Assembly: GCA_048937405.1 (NCBI GenBank)
Contig: JBHLNF010000005.1
Span: forward strand, 64,001-128,000
Direction: 5' to 3'
Length of the DNA: 64,000 nucleotides
Origin: Promethearchaeota archaeon
GTDB lineage: Archaea; Asgardarchaeota; Lokiarchaeia; Sigyniarchaeales; SOKP01
Below are positions 45,397-47,079 of the stretch, piece by piece (the stretch's first letter is position 1; each line of letters opens with the position of its first letter). The position numbers were made by a program, and so were the translations under genes. Under the pieces are notes generated by a model. That model made no database searches. It was not told the DNA's origin and saw nothing but the letters and a program-made list of their open reading frames with translations.

Positions 45397-47079
45397 TCAC
45401 CTTAAACAGAAGCCACATTTACCAAATGACTTAATAGTTTGCTCCCAACAGTGATTATGATATGCTCTGTTACAATGTGGGCATTCCGCATGACAATTTT
45501 CTTCACCAGCAATTTTTCTAGAACAGATTGGACATTCTATTTTATGACAAATTACACACGATATAACTGAAACTTCAAAAATTTTCTTAGATATTAAATT
45601 GAATAAATCTACAAGATAACTAAACGGTGTCCATTCATTAAAAAAGTCATTAAAAGAAGCATGCAAATCACTTTTAATTTTTTCATGTGCTTCAAGCTCG
45701 AATTCATTTATCACCTTTACCTCGGGCATTTTCATAGGGTAATCGAGTGGTAATTTAATTTGAAATTCAAACATAAGATCTTCAGTTTTCATTTTCCCTT
45801 TCATTTCTAAGTATAAAGTTGCTGTAGAGGATTCATATTTTATATTTTTATAATGATCTTTTAATAAATCAATTTCAAAATTAATCCTTGAATTTTTGTC
45901 AACTAACCAAGATATTTCTCTTATAATTTCAACAGGCTCTGAATAATTTTCTTTCCAATTCTTATAAGCTTTTAATTCGTTTATGGGGATCAAAATAATA
46001 TCTTGCAATTCAGAGGATAATTTAAGATTAGGTAATTTTGGATAAGTATTTAAATCAATTGCCAGCGTGTATTCCTTGAATCCATATGTTAACAAATGAA
46101 CTTTTAATGAGGATAAACGTTCCGAGACATTTTCACATCTATATTCTCCAGATATTTTCTTTAACTGTAGTTCAATATCTTTTATAAAAAATAGTTTTTT
46201 CTCCAATTCATGTAAAATATCTATTATGTGCAGAGGACTTTTAGCATTCCAATTAATTAAAGCATCTAATGTTATATTAGGTTCTCCAAAAATATTCTCA
46301 AGTTCTTTAGGAAAAGTTATAATTGGCTTTTTCGGATAATTCATAAAATCAATTGAAATTATAAAAGTTTTTGAGAGAGTAATTGTAATATACACATTGA
46401 CAACAGCTTCTTTGATACTTGGCTGGTCATAGGTGTATTCTTGTTGAATTAAACCTAATTCAGTATTGATAATTACACTTATTTGTTCACTTCCTTCTAT
46501 AATAGATTCTTGAATTGGCATAATAGATTCCTTATTAGAATTTTTAATATAGGATGTATTTATTTCTTCTGATTTATTATCATATGGCTTTTCATTATAA
46601 AAGGGATTATCTGGAGTGTCTGTTGAAGGAAGATAGTCCTCATCTTGAAAATCTGGGGGGTAGATATTTAAATCGGGAGTAATATATTCTTCATTTTCAA
46701 AAGAACTATCGATGCTTTCTTGGTCGTCTACAGAAATCAATGATTTTTCGAACATATCCTTTGGTTGTGTTAAATTATCTTTGATTTTTCTTTTAAGCTC
46801 ATGAATAATATCTACCACATTAGATTCTGGTGTCCAGTTAATAAGATTATTTAACTGAAAAGATCCTAATAATTCTTCAATCGCATTATGATATCTAATT
46901 TGAGGAGGTGTGTTTGGAAAATTTTCGTCAAATTCTATTTCTAATTCATATTTTTTATCTCCAGATTCATATACATAGCCATATAGATGAGCTATATTTC
47001 CCGAAACCATCCAAAATGAAAAATATTTTGCAATTCGCTGAGCTTCTTTTAAAATTCTCTGTTTATCCATGGTGATCAT
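45397..47079 (-). CDS. tandem E2-like (UEV/RWD) x4 plus C4HC3 RING protein; putative E3 ligase
   Basis: four roughly 100-aa repeats, each with (F/Y)P..(.)P and a downstream Trp followed by a helix; C-terminal CPIC..CPHC....H..CW...CGFC. Confidence 0.75.
   Translation of the reverse strand: MITMDKQRILKEAQRIAKYFSFWMVSGNIAHLYGYVYESGDKKYELEIEFDENFPNTPPQIRYHNAIEELLGSFQLNNLINWTPESNVVDIIHELKRKIKDNLTQPKDMFEKSLISVDDQESIDSSFENEEYITPDLNIYPPDFQDEDYLPSTDTPDNPFYNEKPYDNKSEEINTSYIKNSNKESIMPIQESIIEGSEQISVIINTELGLIQQEYTYDQPSIKEAVVNVYITITLSKTFIISIDFMNYPKKPIITFPKELENIFGEPNITLDALINWNAKSPLHIIDILHELEKKLFFIKDIELQLKKISGEYRCENVSERLSSLKVHLLTYGFKEYTLAIDLNTYPKLPNLKLSSELQDIILIPINELKAYKNWKENYSEPVEIIREISWLVDKNSRINFEIDLLKDHYKNIKYESSTATLYLEMKGKMKTEDLMFEFQIKLPLDYPMKMPEVKVINEFELEAHEKIKSDLHASFNDFFNEWTPFSYLVDLFNLISKKIFEVSVISCVICHKIECPICSRKIAGEENCHAECPHCNRAYHNHCWEQTIKSFGKCGFCLR

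Follow-up and report, generated by a model that had tools for sequence, protein, structure and literature searches.

The reach of ubiquitin signalling in eukaryotes rests on hundreds of E3 ligases in which a RING domain is joined to substrate-binding domains. To our knowledge, the archaeal contribution to this repertoire was thought to be only a tiny stand-alone RING. Among eukaryotic proteins, FANCL has three non-catalytic UBC/RWD-like folds (ELF and a double RWD) followed by a C-terminal C4HC3 finger, and in listerin (Ltn1) and RNF25 a single RWD-type domain directly adjoins the RING; in listerin that domain follows a long HEAT solenoid. Tandem domains of the inactive ubiquitin-conjugating enzyme (pseudo-E2) type that form one rigid unit are found in BRE/BABAM2 and in the KNL1 double RWD, which have no RING and are scaffolds in eukaryote-only complexes. 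The archaeal ubiquitin operon, described in Caldiarchaeum and Asgard archaea, encodes a small RING E3 of about 80 amino acids with no pseudo-E2 domains, beside an activating enzyme (E1), an E2 and a JAB protease (PMC5654768; bioRxiv 10.1101/2023.07.25.550441). Here we describe a gene from the Asgard archaeon Promethearchaeota archaeon whose product combines four pseudo-E2 domains with a predicted three-zinc finger. Most likely this is a RING ligase whose substrate domains are of the RWD type, a combination new to archaea. The gene lies in a stretch of 64,000 nucleotides (the window), positions 64001-128000 of contig C18 (JBHLNF010000005.1), in a genome of 4.47 Mb and 29 contigs.

The gene is a real, single open reading frame (ORF; Table 1), as an earlier note made from the sequence alone had claimed. 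Translation probably begins at Met4 (nt 47070), which would give a 557-residue product, because orthologues of 540-590 residues begin at MDKQR, codon 4 of the ORF. The closest database proteins come from metagenome-assembled genomes of Promethearchaeota or Lokiarchaeota and are for the most part labelled 'hypothetical protein'.

A 48-sequence family alignment (A1) was cut into the four proposed domains, which were compared profile against profile with hhalign. All six domain pairs are related, with probabilities of 95-99.4% and E-values of 3.4e-8 to 1.5e-21. Domains 1-3 are mutually closest, domain 2 matching domain 1 at 2.6e-20 and domain 3 at 1.5e-21. Judged from these profiles, the mutual kinship of the four repeats is far beyond chance. 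The features of the UBC fold are present: an N-terminal helix, a four-strand meander, the (Y/F)PxxPP motif, a Trp and a closing helix. The motifs FPNTPP (54), YPKKP (248), YPKLP (346) and YPMKMP (447), as well as W82, W277, W375 and W483, stand exactly where the earlier note had placed them. Domain 1 scores 41 bits against Pfam UQ_con (cut-off 27), and domain 4 scores 30.3 bits against Pfam RWD (PF05773; cut-off 22.8), a model that matches 47 of the 48 family members at E up to 1. In the family profile domain 4 also matches E2s in the PDB at E 1e-6, and it is the most E2-like of the three core domains (domains 2-4).

Domains 1 and 4 are related to the genome's own active E2 family (hhalign probabilities of 96% and 97%, respectively), and when they are aligned to that E2 the segment with HPN and the catalytic Cys is deleted in both. 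There is no HPN in the protein, and the sole Cys outside the C-terminal finger, C315, is not conserved, in agreement with the absence of both catalytic features that had been claimed. Because kinship to the UBC fold is combined with loss of the active-site segment, all four domains are enzyme-dead pseudo-E2s of the UEV/RWD type. The idea of four E2/RWD repeats is thus borne out by the sub-alignments, by Pfam and by the UBC/RWD folds of the AlphaFold2 models.

Run on the full alignment, AlphaFold2 predicts helix/four-strand meander/helix domains at residues 6-104, 196-296, 298-395 and 397-504, with a predicted local distance difference test score (pLDDT) of about 90, and disorder at residues 108-196, where the score falls to about 32. 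For the core alone (residues 197-560), the mean pLDDT is 89.2 and the predicted template modelling score (pTM) 0.80, and the three C-terminal domains and the finger are predicted to form one compact body. In the rigid-body comparison of the models (VIA), single domains account for most matches, with Z 9-11, and these include ordinary E2s, Mms2/UEV1, the UEV-like domain of VPS37A and the RWDs of GCN2, RWDD1 and RNF25. Domain 2 matches E2/UEV folds at Z 9-11 and domain 4 matches the RWD of a SEA-complex subunit at Z 11.3, while domains 3 and 4 together match the KNL1 double RWD (Z 10, 174 residues, root-mean-square deviation (rmsd) 4.5).

The C-terminal finger has the Cys/His cluster C508-x2-C511-x4-C516-x2-C519-x9-C529-x3-C533-x2-C536-x4-H541-x-H543-C544-x10-C555-x2-C558. 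The C4HC3 cross-brace ligands in it, with RING/PHD spacing, are C508, C511, C533, C536, H541, C544, C555 and C558. These eight, together with C516 and C519, are invariant or nearly so across the family, and C529 is kept in most members. In three divergent short members C516, C519 and C529 are missing and the other eight ligands are retained, so the basic unit is a C4HC3 cross-brace and CPxC...C a first-loop insert. Position 543 is His or Cys in 44 of 45 insert-bearing members and Ala, Asn or Arg in all three that lack the insert. Because this residue covaries with the insert, it is taken as the fourth ligand of a predicted third zinc site, made up of C516, C519, C529 and H543, which brings the putative ligands to 12 in total. 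RBX1, RBX2 and APC11 likewise have a zinc site inserted between the first and second ligand pairs. In RBX1 the fourth ligand is also a His before the sixth cross-brace ligand, H82 preceding C83, which we take to correspond to H543-C544. The C4HC3 RING of the earlier note therefore stands as a cross-brace finger with a RING-like profile, but it is not a plain C4HC3, given its inserted third zinc site.

A RING-only profile (A4) was built from the finger of the family and searched against the PDB. It matches Pirh2 (E 8.8e-5), Arkadia (1.8e-4), RNF165 (3e-4) and RBX1 (5e-4), the last over the whole finger, with profile positions 6-61 aligned to RBX1 residues 41-96; RBX2, RNF4 and APC11 are also found. 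The best PHD finger in this search reaches 0.055, and a paralogue's finger, used as query, returns the same list of RING ligases. Because RING ligases match about 100-fold better than any PHD finger, the profile evidence favours a RING over the PHD finger that had been raised as the alternative for the Cys/His cluster. Among Pfam models, Prok-RING_1 matches 33 of the 48 family members. The hydrophobic I510, between the first two Cys, and the terminal basic R560 are consistent with E2 binding. Unlike RBX1, the finger has no cullin-binding N-terminal strand and is fused to its own domains rather than placed in a cullin complex, and Pfam zf-rbx1 stays below threshold (best 18.8 bits against 31, in a relative).

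Three further matches were set apart. The RING profile scored highest against a designed C2H2 array (2i13), an artefact caused by the repeated CPxC motifs, and matches to the Rubicon-homology domain (RH_dom, 18 bits against a cut-off of 28.1) were put down to Cys/His composition. The archaeal ribosomal protein aS34 gave a weak match (E 0.03).

Proteins made of right-handed beta-helix (NosD-like) or leucine-rich repeats (LRR) end in the same three-zinc RING, with 51-61% identity over about 55 residues (Table 1). Its presence on such varied binding domains suggests the logic expected of a modular ligase set in Asgard archaea.

More than 315 full-length homologues of 540-590 residues occur in metagenomes. 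When 1.8 billion representatives were searched exhaustively, 125 relatives emerged, among them short forms of 350-460 residues that match only residues ~200-560, that is, the three core domains and the finger. The survey of Asgard genomes that the earlier note had proposed was made by a core-protein search of 399 genomes of the phylum; it found the protein family in 115, all but one in the same class. The positives include 96 of the 133 genomes of the window's own taxonomic family, three more families of the same order and three of the same class. These three class-level families have short forms only, with several paralogues per genome; the gene studied here is single-copy in 84 of 116 genomes of its family. 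The same distribution emerged from a profile search of 331 genomes at least 80% complete, which added the family f21 (4 of 6 genomes), with matches of ~300 residues that cover domain 4 and the RING only, and one weak match in f16, confined to the middle domains (profile positions 273-420). The three-domain form is probably ancestral; domain 1 and the linker were probably gained later, within this order.

The f21 frames lie in genomes G119-G122. Their matches score at E 1e-13 to 1e-15, and stop codons occur within some of these matches. The frames may represent a simpler RWD-RING relative outside the class.

The linker between domains 1 and 2 is predicted to be disordered, is rich in D, E, S and P, and is found only in the long form, being missing from the short forms. 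Within it, nearly all long forms retain the EEYITPDLNAYPPDF motif, even where identity is as low as ~40%, while the remaining linker varies freely. This motif could dock one of the pseudo-E2 domains or a partner. A looser second motif, (D/E)EYITPS, comes after it.

In four genomes from two families (G126, G127, G128 and G129), a short form lies immediately upstream of a gene for a ThiF-type E1 on the same strand, and in G128 the row continues as short form, E1, E2 and JAB protease. The G128 E2 is 64% identical to a 172-residue E2 encoded on contig C18 of our genome and 34% identical to the E2 of that genome's canonical operon. The G128 E1 is 62% identical to a 531-residue E1, also on C18, over the first 156 residues and 42-55% identical over two further segments. 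By these identities, the C18 E1 and E2 are the orthologues of the G128 operon enzymes. They lie ~103-106 kb from the studied gene and are convergent, with genes for a methyltransferase and a HAD hydrolase between them. The canonical ubiquitin operon lies on contig C7 and encodes, on one strand, a small RING (79 residues, first), a ubiquitin-like protein (112), an E1 (423), an E2 (175) and a JAB protease (284). The genome carries two cascades, and the protein family seems tied to the second E1-E2 pair, a difference from the small RING of the archaeal ubiquitin operon. The studied gene had been said to stand alone; this is right for the window, which has no E1, E2 or ubiquitin gene, but not for the genome, where two E1-E2 sets are found elsewhere.

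We think that the protein is probably, though by no means assuredly, a RING-type ligase or ligase scaffold in a single chain, at work in an Asgard ubiquitin-like conjugation cascade. The C-terminal RING would recruit a charged E2, the likely candidate being the 172-residue enzyme loaded by the 531-residue E1. The dead domains at residues 196-504 would form a rigid platform that holds the substrate or the acceptor ubiquitin, a mode of binding that can be compared with that of the FANCL RWD lobes, the listerin RWD and the Mms2 UEV. The ancestral core would be three domains and a RING, in the domain order of FANCL, to which the order of this genome would have added a fourth, UEV-like pseudo-E2 on an acidic tether with the EEYITPDLNAYPPDF motif. 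Domain 1 and the tether would then probably be a regulatory or ubiquitin-binding arm. The E3 role that had been proposed is plausible in that the finger profile matches solved RING ligases and the short forms occur in E1 and E1-E2-JAB operons.

Several points weigh against this assignment. Pfam RING models stay below threshold in this protein (Prok-RING_1 13.6 bits against 29.1, zf-RING_2 8.1 against 27.3). C4HC3 fingers may also be PHD-type readers, and the Trp of this finger is at C6+1, whereas E2-binding RINGs usually have one at C6+4. No ubiquitin-system gene adjoins the studied gene in this genome or its order, where the conserved neighbour is ileS. The link to an E1 operon was seen in four of the seven class-level genomes examined and involves a short paralogue, not the long form. 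A complex prediction for domain 4 and the RING with a cognate-type E2, run with alignments, gave 0.18 (mark 0.32); it had no control and was not used either way.

An alternative is that the protein is non-catalytic and, like BRE/BABAM2, Mms2 or Tsg101, acts as a ubiquitin-binding adaptor or scaffold. Its pseudo-E2 domains would then bind ubiquitin or partner proteins, and its finger would be PHD-like and serve binding or dimerisation, with no E2 activation. We regard such a role as unlikely, though worth weighing with care. BRE, which has two UEV domains and no RING, is the third-best Foldseek match in the PDB (6gvw_C, E ~1e-5), and Pfam BRE (PF06113), which finds nothing in the protein itself, is over its cut-off in a few relatives, for example at 30.7 bits in P0087. 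The C4HC3 pattern with Y-H-x2-C is common to PHD fingers, weak matches to PHD, C1 and RH_dom occur, and the shortfall of the RING models of Pfam fits as well. The BRE matches, however, span just 56-70 of the profile's 320 positions, and the domain on which they fall changes from relative to relative; the ~100-fold better profile match of the finger to RING ligases speaks for a RING. In addition, the same finger closes proteins made of substrate-binding repeats, and the short form is first in the G128 operon, as the small RING gene is in the canonical operon of this genome. These points favour the RING ligase over an adaptor.

The likeness to listerin raises the possibility of a quality-control ligase, whose last RWD and RING would attach to the ribosome or to a translation factor, so that stalled or faulty products become tagged. 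In Foldseek the models align to yeast and human listerin over ~190-200 columns (E ~1e-4 to 2e-3), a length equal to that of listerin's C-terminal RWD and RING. The Pfam family PF23009 (UBC_like), which the listerin clusters carry, scores 25.2 bits on domain 4 and matches 29 of the 48 family members at E up to 1. In a language-model search, whose similarity scores are treated as leads only, the nearest neighbours outside the protein's own family are FANCL clusters (0.88, 0.88 and 0.86) and listerin clusters (0.86 and 0.84). The gene neighbours also bear on it: ileS adjoins the gene in 6 of 13 loci of relatives, one of them from another family of the order, and an eIF2B-epsilon-like NTP-transferase/LbH gene lies upstream of the short form in G126, G128 and G129. 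PF23009, though, does not reach its cut-off of 27, the protein lacks a HEAT-repeat body or any solenoid, and its RWD-type domains number three or four, against one each in listerin and RNF25. The neighbourhood showed no ribosome-rescue gene, and the linkage to ileS may simply be synteny that close kin have inherited; ileS was not adopted as a functional partner. We judge this role, a special case of the ligase reading, improbable.

The comparison with FANCL concerns architecture and descent separately. The domain order is shared, as the earlier note had claimed, in both the core and the short forms, and at ~365-430 residues the short forms are also similar to FANCL in length. In Foldseek searches of the PDB with the whole and core models, human FANCL (7kzp_L) comes first for both (E 2.3e-7, 402 columns, 370-residue chain), with 9a0j_L and 7kzp_M next and fly FANCL (3k1l) at 3e-3; the KNL1 double RWD and Mediator subunits are listed too. 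The multi-domain matches have TM-scores of only 0.19-0.28, and the rmsd to the FANCL structures 7kzp, 9a0j and 3k1l is 13-26 A although the models are confident. The top 50 rigid-body matches do not include FANCL. In the predicted structures, then, the order of parts is common with FANCL, but the packing is not. Further differences from FANCL (PDB 7kzp_L, 9a0j_L, 3k1l and 3zqs) are the differently packed lobes (TM about 0.25), the extra third zinc site, and the N-terminal pseudo-E2 and acidic linker of the long form. The single domains here resemble ordinary E2/RWD folds, whereas FANCL's own are divergent.

Sequence models gave a similar answer. None of Pfam FANCL_d1, FANCL_d2, FANCL_d3 and FANCL_C matches the protein at E up to 10, and the studied gene was also unmatched by FANCL_C in a genome-wide search. 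A few relatives give sub-threshold FANCL_d1/d2 matches on varying domains (best FANCL_d1 21.7 bits against 23.8). When the PDB was searched by sequence, whether with the protein, the family profile or the RING profile, E2s and RING ligases came up but FANCL never did. Weak matches to BRE, FANCL_d1, FANCL_d2, UEV, UFC1, Med15_C and Knl1_RWD_C, which are short and fall on inconsistent domains, were set aside as superfamily cross-talk. The FANCL-like architecture is real, and membership of FANCL or orthology to it is unsupported; the specific kinship that had been suggested as possible is not supported by the TM-scores, the Pfam models or a rigid-body comparison that favours ordinary E2/UEV/RWD folds. 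A true archaeal FANCL orthologue or direct ancestor, which would mono-ubiquitinate a substrate bound to DNA as part of DNA-damage signalling, is very improbable in spite of the top Foldseek rank, the nearest language-model clusters and the short form's layout, given also that the third zinc site is Rbx1-like and not FANCL-like, that the family is essentially restricted to one Asgard class among the 331-399 genomes searched, that no DNA-repair neighbours were seen at the loci examined, and that the Pfam FancD2 model matched nothing in the genome, in a search whose control genomes were also silent.

Literature searches combining FANCL, Fanconi or RWD with Asgard found no paper describing this protein. 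The only related paper found, on the kinetochore, mentions 'an RWD-like domain' in Asgard archaea (PMC6601020). Work on the Asgard ubiquitin system covers the small RING and UEV-Vps23, and a 2026 structural-clustering preprint does not mention the protein. At least one Asgard class has built a large multi-domain, ligase-like protein from dead E2 copies, in a layout otherwise known from FANCL, listerin and BRE. In a bolder scenario, which we consider quite unlikely, the family would be the pre-eukaryotic form of the RWD-RING ligases, derived from a duplicated Asgard E2, from which FANCL and perhaps the listerin/RNF25 modules descend, and it would serve a second, dedicated E1-E2 cascade with its own substrates. 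The proteins look soluble, are small and have good structure predictions, and candidates for the cognate E1, E2 and ubiquitin-like protein are present in the same genome, so in vitro tests are feasible. This makes two questions testable: whether archaea have substrate-specific E3 ligases, and where RWD-RING ligases originated.

Table 1 Features of the gene, its relatives and associated loci. Coordinates without a prefix are window positions; others carry the contig or locus to which they refer.
Feature	Residues	Coordinates	Strand	Basis or remarks
Whole ORF	560 aa / 560 codons	45397..47079	(-)	stop codon 45397-45399
Domain 1, pseudo-E2 (UEV-like)	4-105	46765..47070	(-)	FPNTPP and W82; UQ_con; hhalign against own E2; AlphaFold2 pLDDT ~95
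Acidic disordered linker	106-195	46495..46764	(-)	~90 aa, between domains 1 and 2; pLDDT 30-35 over residues 108-196
Conserved short linear motif EEYITPDLNIYPPDF in linker	130-144	46648..46692	(-)	family alignment
Domain 2, RWD-like pseudo-E2	196-297	46189..46494	(-)	YPKKP and W277; hhalign; AlphaFold2 pLDDT ~90; VIA
Domain 3, RWD-like pseudo-E2	298-396	45892..46188	(-)	YPKLP and W375; hhalign; AlphaFold2; VIA with domain 4
Domain 4, RWD	397-504	45568..45891	(-)	YPMKMP and W483; Pfam RWD; PDB E2 matches; hhalign; VIA
Three-zinc RING	505-560	45400..45567	(-)	ligand conservation; RING-profile matches
Multi-pass membrane protein	653 aa	43148-45109	(+)	no Pfam family; between studied gene and ileS
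Second E1, ThiF-type	531 aa	C18:214144-215739
Second E2	172 aa	C18:217134-217652
Second E1-E2 region		C18 214144-217652 (L011:4144-7652)
Canonical ubiquitin operon		contig C7 ~333600-337200 (L010:7647-11207)
Beta-helix/NosD proteins with same RING				P0181, P0183, P0190, P0196, P0186
LRR protein with same RING				P0200
f21 frame, example		G121:C61:6781-7203
ThiF and VWA proteins after G128 operon		L019:12286-14368		G128 contig C6
Three-domain-plus-RING paralogue locus, G128	434 aa	L020:7369-9448		G128 contig C5
Third paralogue group	364-367 aa	L031:7917-10301; L032-L035
NTP-transferase/LbH loci		L019:6032-7327; L028:9308-10597; L030:9677-10978
Unannotated ORF, G127	430 aa	L029:1022-2314

The window has a G+C content of ~25%, and tRNA and Rfam scans of it found nothing. 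Within it the studied gene is monocistronic. Its upstream neighbour is a divergent GT2 gene; downstream lies the convergent gene for the 653-residue membrane protein, with ileS beyond. In five of the six relatives with an ileS neighbour, the two genes are directly adjacent on the same strand, and the membrane protein gene looks like an insertion between them.

Other RING-bearing genes were seen around the short forms. After the short form-E1-E2-JAB row of G128 come a shorter ThiF protein (275 residues) and a 394-residue VWA (Ssl1-like) protein with C-terminal RING-type fingers. On another contig of the same genome, a three-domain-plus-RING paralogue has a Roadblock/LC7 protein (149 residues) upstream on the same strand. 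The members of a third paralogue group are always followed by a protein of ~356-384 residues; two of these partners were scanned and have zinc ribbons and two RING-like fingers (zf-RING_2 ~30 bits), and the paralogue and its partner may form a RING-RING pair.

In G126, G128 and G129 the short form and E1 have as their immediate upstream neighbour a gene for a protein of ~430 residues with an NTP-transferase domain and a left-handed beta-helix (LbH). The G129 protein passes the cut-off of the Pfam eIF2B-epsilon LbH model, and G127 has an unannotated ORF in the same position.

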